64,000 nucleotides of DNA from Rubripirellula sp. Lineage in GTDB: Bacteria; Planctomycetota; Planctomycetia; Pirellulales; Pirellulaceae. Where the stretch lies: assembly GCA_965216875.1 (NCBI GenBank), contig OZ244207.1, positions 5,344,001 to 5,408,000 of the forward strand. The letters run 5' to 3'. Every line of letters starts with the position of its first letter. The stretch's first letter is position 1. The position numbers and the translations under genes are program-made. This document shows, in pieces, positions 24,670 to 52,816 of this stretch. The notes beneath the pieces were generated by a model. The model did not search any database. It was not told the origin of the DNA and saw only the letters and a program-made list of their open reading frames with translations.

Positions 24670-24727
24670 CGATCGGTTGTGATCCACGTAATCCTCAGTT
24701 CGGATTTCCTCGTGCGGTGTTAGCGAC

Positions 24728-24755
24728 AACCACGAATAACACGAATCGAACGAAT
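24728..24755 (+). repeat. Solo copy of the ACGAAT-period repeat that flanks the GxxExxY gene
   Basis: AACCACGAATAACACGAATCGAACGAAT between convergent genes; matches the arms at 37748 and 38311-38338. Confidence 0.75.
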
Positions 24756-24768
24756 GAGCCCCGCGAGA

Positions 24769-28460: not shown

Positions 28461-30281
28461 ATGAGTTCCTGCCAATACCACTACGACGTCATCGTGATCG
28501 GAGCAGGTCACGCAGGCACCGAAGCCGCAGCGGCTGCGGCGCGGCTGGGGGCCAAAACAGCGCTACTGACCACCAACCTCGACACCGTTGGTCAGATGTC
28601 GTGCAACCCAGCGATCGGTGGTGTTGCCAAAGGTCAGATCGTTCGCGAAGTCGACGCGCTCGGAGGTCTGATGGGGAGGGCGATCGATGCGACCGGCATT
28701 CAGTTTCGGTTGCTCAATCGACGCAAAGGGCCTGCCATGCACAGCCCCCGCGCTCAAGCCGACAAGCGCGCTTATCAACAACACATCAAAGAACAAATCG
28801 AAGGCCAAGAGAACCTTGACCTGCGCCAAGAAACGGTCGAGGACTTGATCACCGAAGAGGTCGGCGGGACGACGCGGATTCTTGGAGTCCGTGTTCGTGG
28901 TGACGCCGAGTATTTGAGCAAGGCCGTGATCCTGACCACGGGCACGTTCCTGCAAGCGATCATGCACACCGGCGATGCCAAGGCCGCCGGGGGCAGAGCA
29001 GGGGAGGGCACGACGGCCGGGATCTCGGGTGCGTTGCATCGGCTCGGTTTTGAAATTGATCGCTTCAAGACTGGAACACCGCCACGTTTGAATGCGCGCA
29101 CGATCGACTACGACCAAGTCGAACCGCAACCAGGCGATGACACGCCGCAGCCTTTTTCGTTCATGAACGACACGCTCGCTCTCGAGCAATTGCCGTGTCA
29201 CATCACCTACACCAACGAAGCCGTCCACGATCTGATTCGCGCCAACCTGCATCGCGCGCCGATGTACAGCGGTCAAATCAATTCGCGTGGTCCACGCTAT
29301 TGTCCATCGATCGAAGACAAAGTGGTCCGGTTTGCCGACAAGACGCAGCACCAACTCTTCTTGGAACCAGAAGGACGCACGACCCAAGAGGTTTACGTCA
29401 ACGGGATTTCGACGAGCCTGCCGCGCGATGTTCAAGACCAAATGTTCCGCATGATCAAAGGTCTCGAAAAGGCGGTCATCATGCGTTACGGCTACGCCGT
29501 CGAGTACGACTTCTGTCCACCAACGCAACTCTGGCCTCACCTCGAATCGAAAAAGGTGTCCGGTCTCTTTTTGGCTGGTCAAATCAACGGAACGACCGGC
29601 TACGAAGAAGCTGCTGGTCAAGGTTTGATTGCTGGCCTTTCCGCCGCGTTGATCGTTGCTGGGAAAGAGCCGTGGGTCCCCTCGCGCGATCAAGCCTACA
29701 TCGGTGTGTTGGTCGATGACTTGGTGACTGCGGGGACGGACGAACCCTACCGGATGTTCACCAGCCGCGCCGAATATCGACTCTTGCTGCGTCAGGACAA
29801 CGCCGATCGGCGACTGACGCCCGATGCGGAACGACTTGGGTTGATCGACGCCGAGCGCCGCGATCGGTTTCACAACAAGTTGGCCGACATTGATCGCGGT
29901 TTGAAGATTTTGAAGTCGTCACGAATCGAAACCAACTCGGGTCAGCAATACCTTCGTCGCCCCGAAGTCGATTGGCAACAGATGTGCGACCTTGTTCCTG
30001 AGCTCAACGAGATTGGTCTCCAAGCAGCCGAGCAGTGTTTGTACGACACCAAGTACGAAGGCTATATCGAACGCCAAAAGATGGAAGTCGAAAAGCAGCA
30101 ACGACTCGCATCGAAACGGATTCCACCTACATTCGACTACGACGGGATCGGGCCGCTGCGAAGTGAAGCGCGCGAAAAGTTGAATCGTGTGCGACCGCTC
30201 AACCTTGATCAAGCAAAACGAATCAGTGGCATCACTCCCGCCGACCTCGCACTCGTGCTTGCGCACTTGGAATCCAAGTAA
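28461..30281 (+). CDS. mnmG: tRNA uridine-5-carboxymethylaminomethyl(34) synthesis enzyme MnmG (GidA)
   Basis: [59 protein letters not shown]. Confidence 0.98.
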
Positions 30282-30307
30282 GAGTGCGTGGAGTTCTCCC
30301 TCGCTCC

Positions 30308-30436
30308 GTTCGTAGTCCCGCCTTTCGTTCGTAGTCCCGCCTTTAGGCGGAAGAGCCTGAAGATTCCGGCTAAAGCTCGGTACTACAAACTCCTGGCGTG
30401 AGAGAATGCCCGGCCGCTTACGCGTTCACGGCTCAC
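30308..30436. repeat. REP-like cluster: family B doublet with a partial duplication, plus a family E-like element
   Basis: GTTCGTAGTCCCGCCTTT twice, then AGGCGG...AGATTCCGGCTAAAGCTCGGTACTAC; GGCCGCTTACGCGTTCACGGCTCAC at 30412-30436. Confidence 0.75.
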
Positions 30437-30540
30437 TTGTTGAGCACGCGCCGGTATCAATCTGATCCCACCGTTTGGTGATCGATTGAATGTGAAACAA
30501 AAAAACTTCACGGCTACCCACACTTGGTTTTGCTATCACG

Positions 30541-31661: not shown

Positions 31662-32996
31662 ATGGGATTGCTACCCTGTCTGCGCCGCGGTGCCGATCGG
31701 TGGTGGCTTCCTGCGTCTTCGACAGCAACCGACGCGATCGGACAAGTGATGCTTGCCGCCGGTCGCTCGGTCGATCGCGGCGATGTTCGCCGGGATGTTG
31801 GATCAGGTCACGCCACGACTGCAAGTCATGATGGGGCGACCGCGCTCGATGATCGAACGCGGGACACGCTCGTTGCTGCACTCGCGGCCGATCCTCCGCT
31901 CTTGATCTACGCTGCGCTCGGTTGGCCGGGTGACCATGCTGACCTCTGCGAACTCGCGGAGTGGTTCGCGGAAAATGCGATCAGTCGCTTTGCCAGTGGC
32001 GACGCATTTCTTCATGCGCCCGAGATCACTCAAGCACAACGACAACGTTTTGCGGAGCTTGACGATCACTTTCGCACACTTCCCGTCCATCGTTGGATCG
32101 AGAACGCCTCGTTGTGGCTCGAGGTGTTGGGGCCAAAGGTGCCGTCAAGCTGGAGCGAGCAGTGGCCGGAACTGTCGCCTGAACTTCCGGCGCAATCGGT
32201 GACGCGCGATGGCAACATGCTTCAACAGCTCGCCCGGACGATGCAGCGATTGCAATCACTCGAGCGATCGTTTGACGGGCGGCTCCACAAAAGCAAACTC
32301 GGCGCGCTCAAACAACTTGCGTATGGATTGAGTCACGAGATCAATAATCCGCTCGCCAACATCTCCACACGTGCTCAGCAATTGCAGCGCACCGAGGAGG
32401 ATGCGACGCGACACGCGATTTTGCAGCGGATTGTCGACCAGGTCTATCGCGCTCACGAGATGATCGCGGACTTGATGTTTTATGCAAACCCGCCCGCTGC
32501 GACACGCCAGCGCTGTGATCTCAATGGCACGCTTGCTGAAGTCGCCGACAAATTCCGTGAGGAATCGGAGCGGCAAGCGATTCGATTGGAAGTCAAAGCA
32601 CCAAGCCAGCCGACCATGGCCGTGATTGACGAAAGCATGATCGCCGAGGCGCTCTCGGCATTGGTGCGAAACTCGATCGACGCGATCGGTTGCGAAGGCA
32701 CCATCGTCGTCTCGTTGGTTCGCCATGAAGCTGAATCCGTTGGCGATACCGATGCCGGCAGCGAGCGTGGTGGCCAAATCATGATCCATGTCGCTGACAG
32801 TGGGCCGGGGTTATCAGATCACGCCCGCGCCCACGCATTTGATCCCTACTTCAGTGGTCGCGAAGCGGGTCGCGGGCTCGGTCTGGGACTGTGTCGCGCC
32901 TACCGCATCGCCAAACTACATTTCGGCGACGTCACGCTCGCGGGCGGCCCCATCGGCTGCGTCGCAACGATCACGCTCAACGATTTCTCTCGGTAG
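31662..32996 (+). CDS. Cytoplasmic sensor histidine kinase
   Basis: H-box SHEINNPL, N-box LVRNSIDA, DSGPG, FDPYFS, GLGLGL; AGGAGG upstream. Confidence 0.88.
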   Translation: MGLLPCLRRGADRWWLPASSTATDAIGQVMLAAGRSVDRGDVRRDVGSGHATTASHDGATALDDRTRDTLVAALAADPPLLIYAALGWPGDHADLCELAEWFAENAISRFASGDAFLHAPEITQAQRQRFAELDDHFRTLPVHRWIENASLWLEVLGPKVPSSWSEQWPELSPELPAQSVTRDGNMLQQLARTMQRLQSLERSFDGRLHKSKLGALKQLAYGLSHEINNPLANISTRAQQLQRTEEDATRHAILQRIVDQVYRAHEMIADLMFYANPPAATRQRCDLNGTLAEVADKFREESERQAIRLEVKAPSQPTMAVIDESMIAEALSALVRNSIDAIGCEGTIVVSLVRHEAESVGDTDAGSERGGQIMIHVADSGPGLSDHARAHAFDPYFSGREAGRGLGLGLCRAYRIAKLHFGDVTLAGGPIGCVATITLNDFSR

Positions 32997-33000
32997 GTCG

Positions 33001-33264
33001 GTAGGCCGGATCAAGGAGCGACAGCGACACAGATCCGGCATGATCCTAGAAAACCACGCGACGCGTGCCAAAGGGGGCCAAACCCTCAGCGGCTTTCTTG
33101 TTGACAACAGATTGCAAGGGCCAAGGTTGCAAGGACCCAGATTGCCAGGGCCCGACGCTAGCGCGTTCGGCTCACTGAATGCGAGAAGATTCCGGCTAAA
33201 GCTCGGTACTACGAACTTGAGACCAGCGCTGTGCGAGGGCCCGACGCTAGCGCGTTCGGCTCAC
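33001..33264. repeat. Composite REP-like cluster (families A, E, B, E) with a 15-bp tandem repeat
   Basis: GTAGGCCGGATCAAGG...AGATCCGGC 33001-33039; three 15-mers 33109-33153; GGGCCCGACGCTAGCGCGTTCGGCTCAC at 33148 and 33237; family B arm 33185-33216. Confidence 0.8.
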
Positions 33265-33386
33265 GACCTCTCTGCGGAAGGCGACTATCGAAAAAGGATG
33301 GAATCCCCGATACTGTTGGGCTTGCTATTTCACCCCCAGCGTGGGGACCTTTTTCGACAACACTCAACCCGACAGACAGCTGCATC

Positions 33387-36432: not shown

Positions 36433-36930
36433 ATGCCTCGGATGGCTGACGCTTCGAACGACCAACCCAAACGCCCCGACTATTTCTTTGGCACGATCTG
36501 CGCGCTCGTGGTCGTCATCGTCGTTTGGTTGCTGCTGATGCCGATCGTGCCTGCGATCGCCAAATCAACGCTGCGGCGTTTTCACCTACGCACTGAGTCC
36601 TTCGGCGTTTGGGCGATTCAACAGCCGATTCCTTCGATGTACAACTTCGCCAATCGCTACGAAGTTCGCCGCGTGCCGCCCGATTTTGAAGCGGCTGGAT
36701 TCTTCCAGCCCATCATCGAAGAAGATCATCGTCGCTACGTGAATCATTTCCCGACGCGGATCTTCACCTTCGCCAACACGCGCGGGTACTACCTCAACTT
36801 CAATGAAGATCGGTGGTTGCACATTGATTCAACGTACCGCGGCCAAACGATCCAGACGGTGATCCATGCCAAGCAGCGCGACGATGGTGGTTTCGACTTG
36901 GTCTTTTCGGACGGGGAAGCATCGAAATGA
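36433..36930 (+). CDS. Hypothetical single-TM protein
   Basis: N-terminal TM segment followed by an aromatic-rich domain; ATGA overlap with the next gene. Confidence 0.6.
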   Translation: MPRMADASNDQPKRPDYFFGTICALVVVIVVWLLLMPIVPAIAKSTLRRFHLRTESFGVWAIQQPIPSMYNFANRYEVRRVPPDFEAAGFFQPIIEEDHRRYVNHFPTRIFTFANTRGYYLNFNEDRWLHIDSTYRGQTIQTVIHAKQRDDGGFDLVFSDGEASK

Positions 36931-37781
36931 GCGCCCCCGAAGAATCGATTGACCAGGAAACGCCGATCTGGCAACGACCGATCAACCGTCTGATGATCGC
37001 TCACCGCGTCGTCCAACTAGGCATCCTGTTGACGCTCGTTTGGAAGTGGGGCTACTTCGTCGACTCGAGTGACATCTACGAAGCGATCCCGCTGCACGAT
37101 ACGTTCTTTCCGACTTGGTTGCAGTCGATTTGGGTGTTGCGAATCAGTTTTTTGGGAACGGTCATCGCCCTGGCGGTCAATCTGTTCGTCGGTGATCGCT
37201 GGTTCCAAAAAGCATGTTGCCTGCTAACACTCATCGGGACATCGATCCTGTGTCTGCACCAATGCAGCTACAACGACATGACCTTTGTCACAGCATGGTG
37301 GGCCAGTCTGTGGGCGTTTTGGTTCGTGTTACGAATCGACATCGATGACGAAGATCATTTGTTGCGACGGAGTGCATTCCTTAGTCGGCTGATCATCTCC
37401 ATGATCCTACTTGGCGGAGGAATGGGTAAATGGACCGCCGAATATTGGTCGGGGGAAGTCTTTTATGACATCTACTTCCTCGACCGTGATTTCTGGGTCT
37501 TCAATTACTTGCGAGAGAACTTCGAGGCCGAGCAGTTGCGGACGATGTCGATGTGGTACAGCCGCAAAGTGGTGGTGCTCGAGACAGTTGCCGGACTCAC
37601 ACTCTGGCTGCTGCCACCAAAGTGGGCCGCCGCCACCGCCGTCACCATCCTGATGGGCATCGCGCTACTCTCCAACTTCCTCCTCTTCTCCGTCCTCAAC
37701 GCCCTCATCGGATTGGCATTGGTCGGGTTCTTGGTGCAGAAGAAGGGAACCACGAATCAAACGAATCGCACGAATAGCTAA
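36927..37781 (+). CDS. Polytopic membrane protein, HTTM-like
   Basis: About 7 TM segments; GGMGKWTAEYWSGE resembles the HTTM 'G..K....W..G' motif. Confidence 0.55.
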   Translation: MSAPEESIDQETPIWQRPINRLMIAHRVVQLGILLTLVWKWGYFVDSSDIYEAIPLHDTFFPTWLQSIWVLRISFLGTVIALAVNLFVGDRWFQKACCLLTLIGTSILCLHQCSYNDMTFVTAWWASLWAFWFVLRIDIDDEDHLLRRSAFLSRLIISMILLGGGMGKWTAEYWSGEVFYDIYFLDRDFWVFNYLRENFEAEQLRTMSMWYSRKVVVLETVAGLTLWLLPPKWAAATAVTILMGIALLSNFLLFSVLNALIGLALVGFLVQKKGTTNQTNRTNS

Positions 37782-38341
37782 TTGCTATCAATCGTTCGAA
37801 TTGGTTTTTCGTGGTTCATATCTACTCATACGGGAACCATCACCCCAAAATTGGTCATGTCATTGACACGAACAAAGGGGCAATCGATGACCAACATTCT
37901 TTACAAAGAAGAAAGCTACGCGATTATCGGCGGCTGTTTCGAAGTCTACAACGAAATGGGCAGCGGCTATCTCGAAGCCGTGTATCACGAGTGCCTTCGG
38001 CTCGAGTTCTTTTCTCGACGAGTCCCGTTTGAGTCAAAGCTACGACTCAACTTGCGTTACAAGTCTCAGGCTCTCGAGTCGTACTACATTCCTGACTTTG
38101 CCTGTTACGATCAGATCATTCTTGAGATCAAGGCGCAATCGGGGCTGACTGATATCGACCGCGCTCAAATCCACAACTACTTGAAAGGAACGGGAGCCCG
38201 GCTAGGGTTACTCGTCAACTTTGGTTCTCACCCGAAGCTGCAATATGAGCGAATCGTACGGTAGGTAGAAGACGCGACGAGTCAAACGAATAACACGAAT
38301 CGATCAACTCATTCGTTCAATTCGTGTGATTCGTGGTTCCC
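37745..38341. mobile_element. Putative GxxExxY nuclease cassette bounded by 31-bp inverted repeats
   Basis: Left arm GGGAACCACGAATCAAACGAATCGCACGAAT (37745-37775); right arm reverse complement GGGAACCACGAATCACACGAATTGAACGAAT (38311-38341); 28/31 identical. Confidence 0.55.
37887..38264 (+). CDS. GxxExxY protein (PD-(D/E)XK nuclease family)
   Basis: GYLEAVY (GxxExxY), PD...EIK, QIHNY, GLLVNFG. Confidence 0.92.
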   Translation: MTNILYKEESYAIIGGCFEVYNEMGSGYLEAVYHECLRLEFFSRRVPFESKLRLNLRYKSQALESYYIPDFACYDQIILEIKAQSGLTDIDRAQIHNYLKGTGARLGLLVNFGSHPKLQYERIVR

Positions 38342-38353
38342 TCGCTCCGCTTT

Positions 38354-38941
38354 CTAAAGCACGCCTTTGGTGCTTGGTACGGCGTCGCTTCGCGGGTCGC
38401 TTTCGGCGGCCATTCGGATTGCTCGGGCGAGTGCCTTGAAGACACATTCCGAGATGTGGTGCGCGTTGCGTCCGTGGTGGAGGACGACGTGCACGTTGGA
38501 CATCGAGTTGGCTGCGAAGGATTGCCAAAAGTGCTCGACAAGTTCGCTATCGAACGTGCCGATCTTTGCGGGACCAATCGGTGCGTGATACTCAAACGCG
38601 TAGCGTCCGCCGAGGTCAACCGCGGCGGTCACGAGGCATTCATCCATCGGCAAGGTAAAGTGCCCGTAGCGACGAATCCCAGCTCGGTCGCCAAGTGCCT
38701 CGAGGACTGCTTGACCGAGCGCAATGCCGATGTCTTCGGTGGTGTGGTGATCATCAACGTGCAAATCGCCGACCGCTTTGACGTCGAGGTCAATCAGTGC
38801 GTGTTTGGCCAACAGATCGAGCATGTGGTCGAGGAACCCGATGCCTGAATCGCGTTTGCCGTTTCCTTGACCATCCAGATTGACGGTCAATTGAATGTCA
38901 GTCTCGCCAGTCTTTCGATTGATCGTTGCAGATCGCGTCAT
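38354..38941 (-). CDS. hisB: Imidazoleglycerol-phosphate dehydratase
   Basis: RKTGETDI, GFLDHML, DDHHTTED, PMDE, NAHHISE, PSTKG. Confidence 0.97.
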   Translation of the reverse strand: MTRSATINRKTGETDIQLTVNLDGQGNGKRDSGIGFLDHMLDLLAKHALIDLDVKAVGDLHVDDHHTTEDIGIALGQAVLEALGDRAGIRRYGHFTLPMDECLVTAAVDLGGRYAFEYHAPIGPAKIGTFDSELVEHFWQSFAANSMSNVHVVLHHGRNAHHISECVFKALARAIRMAAESDPRSDAVPSTKGVL

Positions 38942-41463: not shown

Positions 41464-41738
41464 CGTTGGTTCGTGTGACGGTTGGTCGATCAAGTCCAAG
41501 ACGCTGGCGGCCTTTCCACGCGGGTGGCCAGCGTCATCTCAGTCAATCGGCGAGGCATGGACGAAGCCGACAACTGGGGCTCCTTATCATAAGCCGATAC
41601 AATATTTTCGTTACCCGGTAAGGGGTAATTCGTTGGCGGATGGCGGACTTTCACCCACCAACCGATCACAGATGCCCCATGCTGGCCCGATTCAGCCGGT
41701 TGTGCCGGAATCACCGGATGCGGGAATGGCCAGCGTCG

Positions 41739-41798
41739 GATGGTTTCGGACCTGATGGTTTGGGGCCTGATGATTGGGCTCCAGGTCGTTGGGGCCAG
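41739..41798. repeat. Degenerate 15-bp tandem repeat (about 4 units)
   Basis: GATGGTTTCGGACCT / GATGGTTTGGGGCCT / GATGATTGGGCTCCA / GGTCGTTGGGGCCAG upstream of ltaE. Confidence 0.5.
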
Positions 41799-44679: not shown

Positions 44680-46068
44680 TTGCCACGTCTTCCGCATCTA
44701 ACGATCACAATCCTTTTCCTGAGTGCTCTTGCACTCAGGGAGATGGCTGATGATGCGCTAGCAGATGATGCATCCAACGGGGGCAATGCGGATCGGGGCT
44801 ACAAGTTGCTGACCGAAACGCCTGTGTTGCCGAGTGACTTTTCGGACGACGTCTTCAATCAAGTGTGGCGTAGTTGGCCGGAACCGCTGCGAAGCCGCGC
44901 TGAATCGGCCAGTCTTTCAAAGCGGCGAGCGATGGCGTTTACGCGTTACGGTCTCTCGACCCGCCCAGGCGACTCCTCTGGCAAACCGCTGCAGTACGTC
45001 GTCGATGACAAACAGCAATGGACAATGAATTGCTTTTCCTGTCATGGCGGAAGCGTTTATGGAAAAACGACGCCAGGCGCACCAAACAATCGCTTCGACC
45101 TACAAACACTTACCGAAGAAGTCCGGTCGACCAAGTTTCGCGTCGGTCAACCGCTCACTCGGATGGATCTTGGCGCGCTGGTGATCCCACTGGGAACGAC
45201 CCACGGCACCACCAACGCCGTCGTCTTTGGCATGGGACTGATGCACCATCGTGACACCGAGCTCAACATCATTGACCGACCGCCCGTTCGCTTCACGCAT
45301 CACGACATGGACGCGCCGCCTTGGTGGCACTTTCATAAACGGCCACACATTTACATCGATGGTTTCGCCGAGAAAGGGCACCGCGGCTTGATGCAATTCA
45401 TGCTCGTTCCCGAGAACGGACCTGAGTTCTTTCGCAATCACGAAGAGGACTTTCGCGATGTCTTTGCCTACATCAGTTCGCTTCGGCCACCAAAGTACCA
45501 AGGTCCGGTTGATCGCCAGCTTGCGTTGCGTGGTGAAGTGATCTTCAACCGCTCCTGTGCTGATTGCCACGGAACCTACGGCGACAACTCGTCGTATCCC
45601 GATGTCCGTATTCCGATCGAAGAGATCGGGACCGATTCGGTGCGTCTCACCGCACTCTCGGTCGCGGGACGTTCGAAGTATGCCAACAGTTGGTTCGCAC
45701 ACGCTGGTGAAGCGGACGAACAAACGACCGTCGTTGATCCGGACGGCTACGTCGCGCCGCCGCTCGACGGTGTTTGGGCAAGCCCGCCCTATTTCCATAA
45801 CGGAAGCGTGCCAACGCTGTGGCATGTGCTTCACCCCGAAGCTCGACCGACCGTTTGGCGCCGAAGCGAAACCGACATGGATCACGATCGAGTGGGTTTC
45901 AAAATCGAGGTGGCGAAGAAAGTGCCGCTCACCGAACCCGATGTCTCGATTCGGCGCAGCTATTTTGACACCCGCCGATTTGGCAAAGGCAACGGAGGCC
46001 ACGACTATCCAAGCGAGTTAAGCGAACCAGAGAAGCGGGCAGTCTTGGAATATTTGAAGACCCTGTAG
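44680..46068 (+). CDS. Secreted di-heme cytochrome c (RoxA/MauG-like); start codon uncertain
   Basis: Signal-like N-terminus, CFSCH and CADCH heme motifs, PPYFHNGSVPTL motif, terminal LEYLKTL. Confidence 0.8.
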   Translation: MPRLPHLTITILFLSALALREMADDALADDASNGGNADRGYKLLTETPVLPSDFSDDVFNQVWRSWPEPLRSRAESASLSKRRAMAFTRYGLSTRPGDSSGKPLQYVVDDKQQWTMNCFSCHGGSVYGKTTPGAPNNRFDLQTLTEEVRSTKFRVGQPLTRMDLGALVIPLGTTHGTTNAVVFGMGLMHHRDTELNIIDRPPVRFTHHDMDAPPWWHFHKRPHIYIDGFAEKGHRGLMQFMLVPENGPEFFRNHEEDFRDVFAYISSLRPPKYQGPVDRQLALRGEVIFNRSCADCHGTYGDNSSYPDVRIPIEEIGTDSVRLTALSVAGRSKYANSWFAHAGEADEQTTVVDPDGYVAPPLDGVWASPPYFHNGSVPTLWHVLHPEARPTVWRRSETDMDHDRVGFKIEVAKKVPLTEPDVSIRRSYFDTRRFGKGNGGHDYPSELSEPEKRAVLEYLKTL

Positions 46069-46074
46069 GTCATG

Positions 46075-46613
46075 AGCCCGCAGGGCGCTAAATCCCAGCC
46101 GGCTCAGCCCGGAGGGCGATAGATCACTGCCGGCGGCGTCAGCCGCCGGTGTGCTGGTCTGCTGAATGAAAAGCCCGAAGGGCGACAGAGTTGGGATGCA
46201 TGAAGTCGATGTATCGCCCTCCGGGCTTAACGAAGTCGTCTCGCGTCCGGTGGCTGACGCCACCGGCAAGGATATTTCGCCCTCCGGGCTTCAGTTCCAA
46301 AGCCCGGAGGGCGGCAAATCACAGCCGGCGGCGTCAGCCGCCGGTGTGTTTTGGTCTGCTAAATGAAAAGCCCGAAGGGCGACACATTTGCTAAGCAGGA
46401 TTTCGATGTATCGCCCTCCGGGCTTAACTAGGTGAGGCTTCAGGTCCGGTGGCTGACGCCACCGGCAAAGATATTTCGCCCTCCGGGCTAGGTGCGCCGG
46501 CAAGGATGCGTCGCCCTCCGGGCTTCAGTCGCCAAGCCACACTTAGCCCGGAGGGCGGCAAATCACAGCCGCCGGTATGCTGGTCGATTGGGCGCAAAGC
46601 CCGAAGGGCGACA
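46075..46613. repeat. Tandem composite palindromic units upstream of the transposase
   Basis: Units at 46106-46290 and 46301-46489 and a left half-unit at 46545-46613, built from AGCCCGGAGGGCG and GCCGG(C/T)GGCGTCAGCC(G/A)CCGG. Confidence 0.9.
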
Positions 46614-46634
46614 GATTCAAATGGGGCAACTTCG

Positions 46635-47087
46635 ATGGCTTCTCATCAACAACTCTTGTACCACTTGGTATTCAGCACCAAGGGACGACGACCATTACTA
46701 CGCGACGATTCATTCCGCGATGGGGTTTGGCGATACATGGCGGGTATCTGCAGCAACCTCGAAGGACATGCCATTCAAGTGGGTGGCCACTATGAACATG
46801 CGCATTTGCTGGTCCGAATTCCAGCAAAGATCGCCGTCGCCGATTTTGTGCGTCAGCTCAAATCAAGCACCAGCAAGCACATTAATCAAGTGCGAAACGC
46901 GGCGTTGAAGTTTCATTGGCAAGACGGATACGGCGCTTTTACCGTCAGCAAGTCCAAGTCGGATTTGGTGGTTCAGTACATTGATCGCCAAATGGAGCAT
47001 CATGCCAAGCGAACATTCAAAGATGAGTTTCTAAAGATGCTGGCGGATCATGAAGTTGAGTTTGATCCAAATTACATTTGGGCATGA
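46635..47087 (+). CDS. tnpA: IS200/IS605-family (RAYT-like) HUH Y1 transposase
   Basis: YHLVFSTKGR, HUH motif EHAHLLV, LKSSTS, FHWQDGYGAFTVS, catalytic YIDRQ..HH; no tnpB adjacent. Confidence 0.92.
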   Translation: MASHQQLLYHLVFSTKGRRPLLRDDSFRDGVWRYMAGICSNLEGHAIQVGGHYEHAHLLVRIPAKIAVADFVRQLKSSTSKHINQVRNAALKFHWQDGYGAFTVSKSKSDLVVQYIDRQMEHHAKRTFKDEFLKMLADHEVEFDPNYIWA

Positions 47088-47096
47088 TGAATTTGA

Positions 47097-47490
47097 TGTA
47101 TCGCCCTCCGGGCTTAACTAGGTGAGGCCTCGGGTCCGGTGGCTGACGCCACCGGCAAGAATATTGCGCCCTCCGGGCTACGTGCGTCGGCAAGGATGCT
47201 TCACCCTCCGGGCTACAGTCCCAAAGTCGCGCTTAGCCCGCAGGGCGGTAAATCTCTGCCGGCGGCGTCAGCCGCCGGTATGCTGGTCCGCTGAATGAAA
47301 AGCCCGAAGGGCGACACATTTGCTAAGCAGGATTTCGATGTATCGCCCTCCGGGCTTAACAAAGTGGGGCTTCAGGTCCGGTGGCTGACGCCACCGGCAA
47401 GGATATTTCGCCCTCCGGGCTAGGTGTGCCGGCAAGGATGCGTTGGCTCCGGGCTGGGTGTGCCGACAAGGGCGTCGCCTTCCGGGCTCG
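47097..47490. repeat. Composite palindromic units downstream of the transposase
   Basis: Right half-unit 47097-47179, full unit 47235-47421, then degenerate CGCCCTCCGGGCT tails. Confidence 0.9.
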
Positions 47491-47497
47491 GTGCCCG

Positions 47498-48847
47498 TCA
47501 CTCGTCCGAATCCCCTGACAGCTTTGCTTGGGTTTCGGCGGAGCGGCGGCCGAAGATGATCCCGGTGCCGCGGAGCTTCCAGAGGAAGAAGACTGCACCG
47601 ACGCCCATCAACGCCGCACAGATGTAGAACATTTTTTGCGGCGTATCAAAAGCACCTCGCGCGCCCCAGTAAAGGAGGGATGCGACCGACATAAAACTAA
47701 ATGAGACCGCGTTCGCCGTCCCCAAAAACTGACCACGTTCACCATCAGGCGAGAACTTCTGCAACATCGCCTGCAGCGGGATGATGTAGAACCCTGCACA
47801 GATCCCGGCGCCAAAGATAAAGCCACCCGTGTTGCTGAAAACAACACGAAGCTGTTTCGGCATGTCGGGAAGCGTTGGCTCGATCGAAGCAAGTAGCACG
47901 AAGAAGACGGTCAATCCAGCGGCCCCGATTGGCACCAATCGCGGCTCGATATGGTGACCGGAAATCAAGCCAGCAAGCGCGCACCCGAGTCCGACTGAGA
48001 TTCCAAGGACGCCCATCAGCGCGCTCGCTTCGCTGCGATCGATCCCGAGCACTTCGTTGTATTCAGGAATGATCAACAGTGCGATCGCTGCAAGCATGTA
48101 AAAATAACCCCACGCCATCATGACCATCAACAAACGTGTCTTGGACATTTCCTTGATCACGGTGATGTAGGTCGCAAGCGGGTTGAAGTTGTATTTCAAA
48201 CTCTTGTCGCCTGGCTTGACCGGGGTCAAAAAGAACGCGCAAACGAGTCCGACAAGGGCGACTAGGATAAGAGCCACTCCGGGCAGCCACATGATCGGAT
48301 CTGCCGTGACGACGCTGCCATCGGCCAGTTCGACCGGCTTGGGTTGGTAGGCATCGGCGATCTTGCCGCCAAGCCAAGTTCCCAAGATGACCGCTAGGTT
48401 GGTCATCATGTTGATCGTGCCATTGGCGCGACTGAGGTCTGAGTCTTTGACCAGCTCGGGAATCATCCCGTACTTGGCTGGACCAAAGAACGAACTTTGG
48501 CACGCCAGCGCGATCAAGGCGAGCAGGGTGATCCAAGCGTTGTCGGTAAAGAAACCGATCGCCCCGATCGCAGCAATCGGCACTTCGGCAATCTTCACCC
48601 ATTTGGTGACGGTTCGTTTGGAATGACGGTCCGCGACTTGGCCAGCAAACCCCGACAGCAAGACGAACGGGACGGCAAAGCAAACACCGACGAAACCTTG
48701 ACCACCGACACCAAACGCCGTTTCCCACGGACCACCTTCGATCACCATGAACGCCAACACCATCTTCAAGACGTTGTCGTTCATCGCCCCAAAGAACTGG
48801 GTGGCGACCAGCGAAAGGAAGCCAGGTTTGACAAGATTGCTTTTCAC
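47498..48847 (-). CDS. MFS transporter (lysophospholipid transporter LplT-like); start codon uncertain
   Basis: TQFFGAMNDN, AGQVADRHSK, QSSFFGPAKYGMIPE, ANG, IPLQAMLQ; about 12 TM segments. Confidence 0.85.
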   Translation of the reverse strand: MKSNLVKPGFLSLVATQFFGAMNDNVLKMVLAFMVIEGGPWETAFGVGGQGFVGVCFAVPFVLLSGFAGQVADRHSKRTVTKWVKIAEVPIAAIGAIGFFTDNAWITLLALIALACQSSFFGPAKYGMIPELVKDSDLSRANGTINMMTNLAVILGTWLGGKIADAYQPKPVELADGSVVTADPIMWLPGVALILVALVGLVCAFFLTPVKPGDKSLKYNFNPLATYITVIKEMSKTRLLMVMMAWGYFYMLAAIALLIIPEYNEVLGIDRSEASALMGVLGISVGLGCALAGLISGHHIEPRLVPIGAAGLTVFFVLLASIEPTLPDMPKQLRVVFSNTGGFIFGAGICAGFYIIPLQAMLQKFSPDGERGQFLGTANAVSFSFMSVASLLYWGARGAFDTPQKMFYICAALMGVGAVFFLWKLRGTGIIFGRRSAETQAKLSGDSDE

Positions 48848-50241: not shown

Positions 50242-51042
50242 ATGTTTTCGTGGCTGAAGAAGAAGGAACCGGTCAAACCCGAAACCTACGGACCGGAATT
50301 CTCGGTCACCTTCCACAATGACCAGGGCAGCTGGGAAGAATCGGTCAATTTGCTCGACGTGATGTCTGAAGTGATGGCCCAATCGGGCGTCGAGTTGACT
50401 CGAAAAGGCGACTCGCTGGTCGACCCGAAGACGGGATTCGAGTTTCGCCCCGAGTTCCTATCGCTCGAACCCGGCGAAGGTTCGGTGTCGACGTGCAGCG
50501 TCACAACGGTCATCCATCCAAAGATTTGCCCCGATGGAATCTTCGAATACCAGCACGCCGGGGGCGACGATCTTGCCGGCTCCTTTCGGCAAGGGTTCGA
50601 GATGTGGCAGCAAACCGATTACGCGACGCTCAAAGAAGCAGTACTCCCCAAGCCAGACAACCTCACACACATGGAGATGAAACTGCCCGATGGTCGAGTG
50701 CGCCGCATCCTGCTTGGTCCGGTCGCCCACTACGTCGAAGACGAAGAAGCTCATCTTGCCGGTTCGAAATGCTCGCCCGACGGCGACGAGCATCCATTCT
50801 GTCCGTGTTGTCTTTTCACAAACACACTGATGGCGTTCAAGCCGCTGCTCGATACCGATGACTTTTATGCACTGCGCATGTTTGCATCACGAGACGAGAC
50901 CGGAAGGGCCCAGGCCGATTGCCGCGTTAACGGCCACGACGACCGTAAGGGAATGGCAGAGCTGAAGAAGTACATCAACCAATGGCCGCAAGCTGGTTTT
51001 GAGTTTCGAAAACAATACGTGCTCATCCAATCAGTGAAGTAA
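50242..51042 (+). CDS. DUF6348-like hypothetical protein
   Basis: FEYQH, HPFCPCCLFT, ADCRVNG and EFRKQYV motifs. Confidence 0.6.
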   Translation: MFSWLKKKEPVKPETYGPEFSVTFHNDQGSWEESVNLLDVMSEVMAQSGVELTRKGDSLVDPKTGFEFRPEFLSLEPGEGSVSTCSVTTVIHPKICPDGIFEYQHAGGDDLAGSFRQGFEMWQQTDYATLKEAVLPKPDNLTHMEMKLPDGRVRRILLGPVAHYVEDEEAHLAGSKCSPDGDEHPFCPCCLFTNTLMAFKPLLDTDDFYALRMFASRDETGRAQADCRVNGHDDRKGMAELKKYINQWPQAGFEFRKQYVLIQSVK

Positions 51043-51056
51043 CACGCCGTTGCAAA

Positions 51057-51375
51057 GTCGCCTTTCGCTCCGCGAAAGCAGCGTCCGCAAATGCAACCGT
51101 CGCCAACTCCTGAGCCGTACGCGCTAGCGTCGGGCCTTGCTGCTTACGCGTTCGCATTTTGTCGCCTTTCGCTCCGCGAAAGTAGCGTCCGCAAACGCAA
51201 CTTTTGCGGAGCAAAAGGCGACTCATTCAAAGCTCGACTCAAAAACCACAGCCCTCTGGCGCGCGCAGGAACTGGGCGAGTTGCCGCAGAGCGGCGAAGA
51301 GTGTGTTCCCACGGGGACCGTGGGAACAAGGTAGGTAGTATCCGCAAGCGCAACTATTGCGGAGCAAAAGGCGAC
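51057..51375. repeat. Composite REP-like cluster (four family D arms, family E, and a further hairpin)
   Basis: GTCGCCTTTCGCTCCGCGAAAG at 51057 and 51161; inverse arms at 51201 and 51354; TGAGCCGTACGCGCTAGCGTCGGGCC 51111-51136; GTTCCCACGGGGACCGTGGGAAC 51305-51327. Confidence 0.8.
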
Positions 51376-51388
51376 TATTTCAAAACAC

Positions 51389-52816
51389 TTACGAGTAAAG
51401 CTGGATGGCTTTAATGATGTCGTCGAGTTCGTTTTGAACGGCGACGGCGCGGTTGGCGTAGCTCGCCTTCTTCACACCGCGGCTGCCGAGTGTCTTGTTG
51501 AAGACTTCTTGATCCGTTGTGTGATAAGCAACGGTTGCGTTGGGGTCTTTCAATTCGTGCCCCGTCAGCACACAGACGACGCGGTCGCTCGGTGCAATGA
51601 CGCCTTCGCGACGCAATAGTTTTGCGCCAGCAACGCTCGCCGCGGATGCGGGTTCACATCCGAATCCACCGCCACCCACTTTTGCTTTGGCATCAAGGAT
51701 TTCCTGGTCGCTCACTTGGCGAACGACACCGTCCATGAAATCCAAAGCACGCAAGCACTTTTTCAAATTGACGGGGCGATTGATCTCAATGGCGCTAGCG
51801 ATCGTGTCGGCCTTTTTGCCTTCGCGATCCATTTCATCGTTGTAAGCAACGATCGGGTCCATATCGACGTTGCCGCCGTTCCAGCGAACACCGCGGCGCT
51901 CGTAGAGTTCGTAAAGCGTATCCGCGCCGGCGGCATTGATCACAGCCAATCGCGGAACACGATCGATCAAACCGTGTTGCTTCAGCTCCATAAAGGCTTT
52001 GCCAAACGAACTGCTGTTACCGAGGTTACCGCCGGGAACAACGATCCAATCTGGCACTTCCCAACGAAGCGCCTCGAGGATGCGGAACATGATCGTCTTC
52101 TGGCCTTCAAGGCGATACGGGTTCACGCTGTTGACCAAGTAGATGCCCATCTCTTGTGAGATCTGCTTGACGCGAATCATGGCATCGTCAAAGTCGCCGG
52201 CAATTTGAACGGTCAGTGCGCCGTAGTCGAGCGCTTGGCTGAGTTTGCCATAACTGATTTTGCCGCTACCGATGAAGATGACCGCCTTCATCAAACGCGT
52301 TGCACTGCAGTAGAGCGCGAGCGACGCGCTGGTGTTTCCGGTACTGGCACACGCGGCTCGTTTGGCCCCCATCATGTTGGCGTGGGTGACGGCGGCAACC
52401 ATGCCATTGTCTTTAAAGCTGCCCGAAGGGTTCATGCCCTCGTACTGCAAATGCAAACACCCTGTGTTCATCCCAACGTATTGGCCGACGGGGTCGGTCT
52501 GTTGCAACAGCGTTTGACCTTCGCCGACCGTGATGATCTGGTCTTGAGGCGCGAAGGGAAGCAGCTCGTGAAATCGCCACACGCCACTAAAGCGAGTTGG
52601 ATTGGTCCGCTCGGCCCACATTGACTCAAAGTACTTCAAGCTTTCGGGAACGTTGGCGCGATCCCAGTCGTAGTCGATGTCGAGCAGGTCGCCACATTTG
52701 TCACACGACGTGCGCGCGCTCATTGCATCGTACGTAGCACCGCAACACGGATTGATGCACTTCTGAAAGGCGAGGTCGGTTTGGATGGCGTTACCTTTGG
52801 CGGCTGTCTGCAACAT
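51389..52816 (-). CDS. thrC: Threonine synthase
   Basis: N-terminal Cys cluster, [58 protein letters not shown]. Confidence 0.93.

Follow-up and report, generated by a model that had tools for sequence, protein, structure and literature searches.

A small GxxExxY protein likely recognises, and may spread, the oriented repeat that flanks its gene

Introduction

Why would a very small gene with the motifs of a nuclease lie between two inverted copies of a short periodic repeat? The question is raised by a locus in a 64,000-nt stretch of an 8.26 Mb Rubripirellula genome (G000:C1:5344001-5408000), which we call the window and in which positions are counted from its first letter. A sequence-only reading of the window had proposed that the locus might be a mobile or regulatory system, in which a GxxExxY nuclease binds, cuts or spreads its cognate repeat. 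The PDDEXK_3/GxxExxY family is given as of function unknown in the available text of PMC3424549, and a literature search, whose scope ended short of subscription journals and supplements, returned passing mentions of the family only, with the link between gene and repeat undescribed. Here we describe a real nuclease-plus-repeat system with a testable recognition code, apparently unpublished. Comparison of its sequences suggests that the protein likely recognises its own repeat and may spread it.

The GxxExxY gene and its arms

The GxxExxY gene (37887..38264, plus strand) encodes a 125-aa protein. It follows a membrane-protein gene (36927-37781), whose 284-aa product had no Pfam or NCBIfam match, and it precedes a hisB-like gene on the minus strand (38354-38941), so labelled from its own sequence and its hisC/hisD-like neighbours rather than from a family search. 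In profile searches the 125-aa product scored 120.6 bits against TIGR04256 (cut-off 35) and 121.7 bits against PF13366 PDDEXK_3 (cut-off 22). These scores, together with the conserved residues E30, D70, E80, K82 and Q94 of the PD-(D/E)XK fold, confirm that an intact gene of this family lies between the membrane-protein gene and the hisB-like gene, as had been read. The same reading called the gene lone, which is right for the locus but not for the genome, where six GxxExxY genes are present. The best named relatives of the protein are mostly from Planctomycetota.

The gene is framed by two outer arms, each composed of three 7-nt units of the CACGAAT type with a 9-bp period. The left outer arm (37745..37775, plus strand) and the right outer arm (38311..38341, minus strand) are identical at 28 of 31 positions, exactly as first noticed, and the left one overlaps the final codons of the membrane-protein gene and provides its stop codon. 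Each flank also contains a degenerate inner arm in the opposite orientation. The left inner arm (37790..37817, minus strand) matches in 24 of 30 columns, with 3 gaps, and can form a hairpin with its outer arm; the right one (38272..38301, plus strand) matches at 20 of 26 positions (38275-38300) and forms a weak hairpin. As ssDNA, the left flank folds with -20.5 kcal/mol (z -6.9), with none of 200 shuffles equally good, while the right flank folds weakly (z -2.0 and -1.6; 6 and 9 of 200 shuffles). Both inner arms that had been proposed are therefore present, but a strong hairpin is found on the left side only. No direct duplication of 2-9 nt was seen at six boundary offsets of this locus, which upholds the earlier remark that a target-site duplication is lacking, and an Rfam search gave three chance-level matches, far under the gathering score.

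The protein has an intact restriction-like fold

The structure of the 125-aa protein is predicted with confidence (pLDDT 94). The PD-(D/E)XK fold and the catalytic residues are intact: D70 is invariant, E30, E80, K82 and Q94 are present in at least 90% of 96 sequences, and the best structural matches are PD-(D/E)XK enzymes. The order E...D...ExK...QxxxY marks RecB/Cas4-type metal-dependent nucleases. The top Foldseek match was Cas4 SSO0001 (4ic1; E 7e-4, TM 0.58), and the best matches were mostly DNases. A wide structural search returned restriction-like folds, the best at Z 7.8 (rmsd 3.5, 97 residues aligned) and none at Z 8 or more, and a search by sequence found no solved relatives. A junction-resolvase reading was also considered and kept as a lead only, as the profile search gave just T7 endonuclease I at E 1.4.

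The likeness to Cas4/RecB-like nucleases is one of core fold and motif order. Unlike Cas4, however, the GxxExxY protein has only 125 aa and no CRISPR context, and the four Fe-S cysteines of the Cas4 type are missing, with no cysteine among the invariant or near-invariant columns. The sole profile matches were PF13366 and TIGR04256. Thus, Pfam and NCBIfam searches gave no GIY-YIG match, and neither the HUH motif and catalytic Tyr of Y1 transposases nor any other recognised transposase chemistry (DDE, HUH, Tyr, Ser) was detected in the profile searches.

The arms form a family of solo, oriented repeats

A weight matrix built on the arm detected 87 copies genome-wide and gave no match when the genome was reversed, while the stricter pattern given by the first reading (AACCACGAATN3ACGAATN3ACGAAT) occurs 19 times. 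The copies that had been postulated elsewhere in the genome therefore exist, and most of them are solo. According to our own simple gene caller, 85 of the 87 are intergenic, and the bias for a replication strand is weak (54/87 on the G-rich strand). Within a distance of 220 nt, 8 of the 87 are accompanied by an ungapped arm in the opposite orientation that exceeds the 99th percentile of the background, a count that misses gapped partners such as the left one in the window; inverted arm doublets are common in the genomes G002 and G059. Since the median folding energy of a solo arm is about -1 kcal/mol, the arm is here an oriented sequence and not a hairpin. One solo arm lies in the window itself, between two convergent genes (24727..24756, plus strand, by weight matrix).

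Solo arms often lie within mosaics of other repeats, including RAYT-type REPs. One REP-like motif follows 13 of the 87 arms, compared with 1.2 expected, and arms that belong to other GxxExxY paralogues recur near arms of the window's family. Note that two arms of the window's family, both facing inward, enclose an unrelated gene of 313 aa at G000:C1:3878553-3879708, a possible cargo.

Five paralogues carry five arm families

Five of the six GxxExxY genes in the genome are short, and each of these is flanked by its own arm family; the strict copies of the five families in the genome number 55, 23, 6, 53 and 4. No strict copy is present of three arm types that belong to gene clades missing from the six, and one arm family, with 6 copies, has no gene there. 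The sixth gene is of a long form and has no arms. None of 12 such long-form genes has arms, and ten of the 12 form one supported clade. The long form has about 270 aa, with the GxxExxY domain followed by a C-terminal extension (L006, G000:C1:1417298; L141-L151). Two further open frames, L117 and L130, contain two tandem GxxExxY domains, and L117 has arms.

The sequence GGGGCA is found just 5' of the start codon in all five short genes (window 37874-37886; L001, L002, L003 and L005). GGGGC precedes 89 of the 5084 crudely called genes of this genome, and a GGGGCA-type sequence was seen in just 12 of 104 loci of the family, using a rough window.

Arms accompany GxxExxY genes across genomes

GxxExxY genes occur in at least 45 of the 71 genomes of the bacterial family. 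The set used for comparison comprised the full-length genes among the 150 matches listed and ten long forms, that is 116 domains. A generic three-unit finder detected arms at 90 of the 101 short GxxExxY genes among the matches listed, compared with 31 of 300 control small genes; with a strict cut-off, the figures were 72/101 and 9/300. Moreover, the type of arm follows the protein. The protein tree requires 26 changes of arm code, compared with a mean of 48.9 and a minimum of 44 in 500 shuffles (72 labelled rows), and the window protein belongs to a supported clade of 16 rows in which the codes are of the G[AG]A[AT] type and the period is 9 bp. The proposal that the repeat is tied to GxxExxY genes and co-varies with the protein clade was thus borne out.

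The gene of the window's clade is present in 39 of 201 genomes (best E at most 2e-35; one copy has a stop). By hand count, 20 of the 39 genomes that have the clade gene contain five or more strict arm copies, compared with 14 of the 162 that lack it (Fisher p 1e-8, which is overstated because related genomes are not independent). An arm lies no more than 400 nt away at each of the best 30 clade loci, and 20 of these have one on either side. Nine of the 39 genomes have no strict copy, and their local arms are often variants outside the pattern. Conversely, the repeats of the 14 genomes lack a clade gene. An example is G059, a complete genome with 20 homogeneous arm copies, in which the clade gene is absent; such orphan repeats imply that the repeats can outlast the gene or that something else can move them. 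Eleven of the 20 arms of G059 (L312-L322, G059:C1:3009290-3045542) are grouped in 36 kb, interspersed with short unrelated genes, with the look of a cassette array.

The linkage is also seen in other phyla. From 52 loci across prokaryote species, 44 near-full-length ones were kept, and 39 of these have an arm, in 9 of 10 named phyla, compared with 18/300 and 3/220 in controls. A control with reversed flanks (13/44) was set aside because the complement of a genuine arm resembles the pattern. The five arm-less loci constitute one well-supported Bacteroidota/Chlorobiota subclade.

Residue 22 of the protein tracks the last base of the unit

Within the window's clade, every protein column was compared with four traits of the arm, and residue 22 (codon 37950..37952, plus strand, in the window) stood out. 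Of 25 proteins with T-ending units, 24 have Asn at this residue, and of 35 with A-ending units none does. The other clades played no part in this discovery, and there Asn22 was present in 16 of 19 proteins with T-ending units and in none of the 49 others. Taken together, 41 of 45 proteins with T-ending units have Asn22, compared with 0 of 88 others (133 of 158 proteins labelled). Residue 22 leaves 4 errors in 133, the next best column 31.

The best tree has 14 changes of the base, 16 of the residue and 17 of the pair taken jointly, so most changes coincide. Starred branches provide only three independent contrasts (on average 1.9 in the same direction and 0 in the opposite one), and a sign test on these is not significant. 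Both Asn codons are used at residue 22 (34 and 16 times), and several Arg and Lys codons occur there too, which indicates a link at the level of the protein and not of its DNA. In the predicted structure, helix 1 spans residues 7-24, and residue 22 would close it, directly ahead of the GxxExxY loop. A weaker link, which holds poorly in the window's clade, was seen for Thr10 in the same helix, present in 35 of 53 proteins with G at position 5 of the unit and in 1 of 80 others. Residues 6, 14 and 18 showed nothing consistent with the arm bases.

The cassette changes position

Next, the extent of shared DNA was compared in 16 pairs of genes. L179 and L184 are 84% identical from -37 to +38 of the gene, and beyond that the arms alone are shared; L167 and L176 (85%) share the gene and arms only; in L290/L294 the homology breaks inside the upstream arm. 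Because the homology of close pairs does not reach beyond the arms, the cassette moves. Synteny is retained in L290/L292 and in L295/L296, a pair without arms. A further pair, L279 (Planctomycetota) and L280 (Gammaproteobacteria), has cassettes 92.6% identical with homology ending at the downstream arm; this pair also shares the upstream gene and is not clean, reflecting either a recent cross-phylum transfer or a binning error. Phyla are mixed on the protein tree, and family members were found on 6 of 72,556 plasmid records and on one viral contig. The GxxExxY genes are under purifying selection: dN/dS was 0.08-0.16 in seven of the eight unsaturated pairs and 0.45 in the other, four pairs being saturated.

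Around hisB, nine genomes were compared, and only the congener G002, which contains 50 arms, has a GxxExxY gene. There, the gene lies between the same two neighbours, in the opposite orientation and with the same arm family. Its product is 61% identical to that of the window, the neighbours 62-85%, and the data fit an inverted orthologue and a second insertion comparably (p-AU 0.46). The congener G001 (84% complete), which has no clade gene and no arm, allowing up to one mismatch, carries a different REP doublet at the site, and G016 has other genes there. An empty site, which the first reading had proposed to look for near hisB, did not appear in a clean form in these relatives, and none of them gives the ends of the cassette at base level. 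The same reading had named two findings that would count against it, a lack of repeats beside GxxExxY homologues and conservation of the gene here in relatives without the repeats; arms are enriched beside the homologues, and G001 lacks both the gene and the repeats.

Solo arms turn over between species: seven of 25 arm sites of G002 could be mapped to syntenic gaps here, and one of the seven gaps holds an arm. In the gap that corresponds to window 24699-24757, G002 has a doublet of another arm family. A second strain, X5 (about 1.4% divergent), has the cassette in the same orientation with no listed change in the gene or arms, and the listed differences in its contigs include no inversion or excision joint at the cassette. 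At the solo arm, the alignment of an X5 contig covers 24000-24698 and continues only from 24758, so that the 59 nt of 24699-24757 are replaced by 1118 other nt. One junction of this difference of about 1.06 kb is the 3' end of the arm; the replacement may be an unrelated insertion. A metagenome scan with the flank of this solo arm gave six stretches, none of which encodes the neighbouring genes.

A model for recognition and spread

We propose a mobile cassette at this locus, made up of the GxxExxY gene and, on either side of it, an arm of its own repeat that faces inward. The protein would recognise the three 7-nt units of the arm by their sequence, with Asn22 of helix 1 as the predicted reader of the last base of the unit, and would nick or cut DNA at or near the arm. 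To our knowledge, PD-(D/E)XK hydrolases have no joining chemistry, so spreading would require host repair, which would copy solo arms, doublets and occasionally the whole cassette into new intergenic sites. The comparisons show the linkage of gene and arm, the clade-specific arm types, the correlation of residue 22 with the last base, a cassette that relocates with breakpoints at the arms, purifying selection on the gene and intact catalytic residues. Direct binding, cutting, and cutting as the cause of the spread are inferred, and we give this reading as a whole a probability of about 0.55.

A likely substrate is thereby named for a family given as of function unknown, and because one residue predicts one base, the function could be tested directly by one specificity swap. 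If true, RAYT/REP and Ssn/NTS would be joined by a third nuclease-plus-repeat system of independent evolutionary origin, a large class of intergenic repeats would be explained, and a set of very small nucleases with differing specificities would become available. A broader version, which we offer only tentatively, is that GxxExxY genes are the autonomous elements of a common kind of mobile DNA that has so far gone undescribed. In it, a restriction-like nuclease of 125 residues would read the three-unit arm through a residue-base code in helix 1, many orthogonal nuclease-repeat pairs would share one genome, and the genes as well as gene-less arms would spread without a transposase.

Relation to known systems and alternative explanations

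The window contains a RAYT/REP-type locus of its own. A Y1 (IS200-like) transposase gene (46737-47087; PF01797, 62.8 bits) lies about 8.4 kb from the GxxExxY locus, inside palindromic-repeat arrays on both sides (46068-47498), in agreement with the first reading, which had placed such a locus some 8 kb away. The claim that the GxxExxY layout mirrors it stands in part: a genome-wide repeat family with a cognate gene is indeed present, but the arms are mostly solo and non-palindromic. In the portions of the sources available (10.1101/2021.07.10.451892; PMC3733652), REPIN-RAYT systems and REPtrons/TIRtrons combine an extragenic repeat family with one cognate gene, with several such families per genome, and they resemble the present system in this, in the inverted doublets of some genomes and in the mosaic clusters. 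By contrast, RAYT is an HUH/Tyr enzyme, described as non-jumping, vertically inherited and absent from plasmids, with palindromic REPs (10.1101/2021.07.10.451892). The GxxExxY protein has no HUH motif, its cassette relocates and crosses phyla, and most copies here are solo arms. Therefore, among the RAYT traits, the extragenic location is shared (85/87), while the short-palindrome unit and the non-jumping gene are not, and the likeness does not extend to inheritance.

As in an insertion sequence or MITE, terminal inverted repeats bound a unit that relocates, but at this locus there is no target-site duplication, and recognised transposase chemistry is absent. Rpn/YhgA-like recombination-promoting nucleases also have the PD-(D/E)XK fold. 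They differ in belonging to another Pfam family (PF04754), and they are a precedent for RecA-independent horizontal transfer in the text available of PMC5350276.

A close parallel is the SsnA nuclease of Neisseria meningitidis, whose small gene lies between oriented copies of a repeat of its own, many further copies of which have no gene (PMC11893778, in the part available). Like Ssn with its NTS/SRM repeats, as that text presents them, GxxExxY is a small single-domain nuclease gene between its own multi-copy oriented repeats, with gene-less copies and clade-specific repeat variants, and is not a recognised transposase (PMC11893778). Ssn is, however, a GIY-YIG enzyme (cd10448) with a hairpin repeat in the portion of that work at hand, whereas here a PD-(D/E)XK protein is paired with three direct units that do not fold alone; and cutting has been shown for Ssn, while for GxxExxY it is a prediction. 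The system thus works like RAYT/REP or Ssn/NTS and belongs to neither, since it differs from both in fold and from RAYT in that its gene jumps.

This parallel suggests an explanation other than ours: GxxExxY could be a host tool that, as a site-specific nuclease, attacks incoming or exposed DNA at the arm and tunes recombination or gene transfer, while the arms spread otherwise, for example by gene conversion or by riding in REP mosaics. The architecture is that of NTS-ssnA-NTS, for which ssDNA cutting and an effect on transformation are reported in the text available (PMC11893778); purifying selection and the location of arms within mosaics of other repeats agree with it, and the residue-base link fits it equally well. 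However, the patchy presence (39/201 genomes), the relocation and the mixing of phyla look selfish rather than domesticated. Nor were arms significantly enriched at synteny breaks (8/12 vs 5/16, p 0.12; unscorable were 13 of the 25 arm sites and 27 of the 43 control gaps), and we judge this explanation unlikely.

A self-spreading cassette must also be weighed against one that is carried. The arms could be the ends of a non-autonomous element that is moved by another enzyme, such as RAYT, with the gene riding along and the solo arms as scars of repeat-driven deletion. Many solo arms lie in RAYT-type REP mosaics, so another enzyme could carry them; orphan repeat families do exist, and different species have different repeat families in the same gap, so that such gaps are general repeat hot spots. 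Linked sequences would, in addition, co-vary by descent alone. Descent alone, however, fails to explain how residue 22 leaves so few errors (4/133, the next column 31) across about 14 changes on the tree, and it leaves five paralogues with five matching arm families unexplained, which makes this a distinctly improbable account. We give even less credit to the idea that the arms act in transcripts, as terminators or as processing or stabilising sites, with the protein binding or cutting the RNA form: arms are enriched between convergent genes (29/87, compared with 663 of 4030 gaps overall), 22 of the 44 arms that come after a gene are within 40 nt of its stop, and the left flank folds strongly, but solo arms do not fold, arms lie on either strand relative to the preceding gene (46 vs 41), only one of seven syntenic gaps is shared between species, and the best Foldseek matches are mostly DNases.

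Other repeats in the window

The window contains further high-copy REP-like clusters in intergenic gaps, at 30281-30440, 32996-33265 and 51042-51389, with very high contig depth. Finally, in strain X5 the 49 nt of window 41726-41774, which belong to an intergenic stretch that contains short tandem repeats, are replaced by 79 others.
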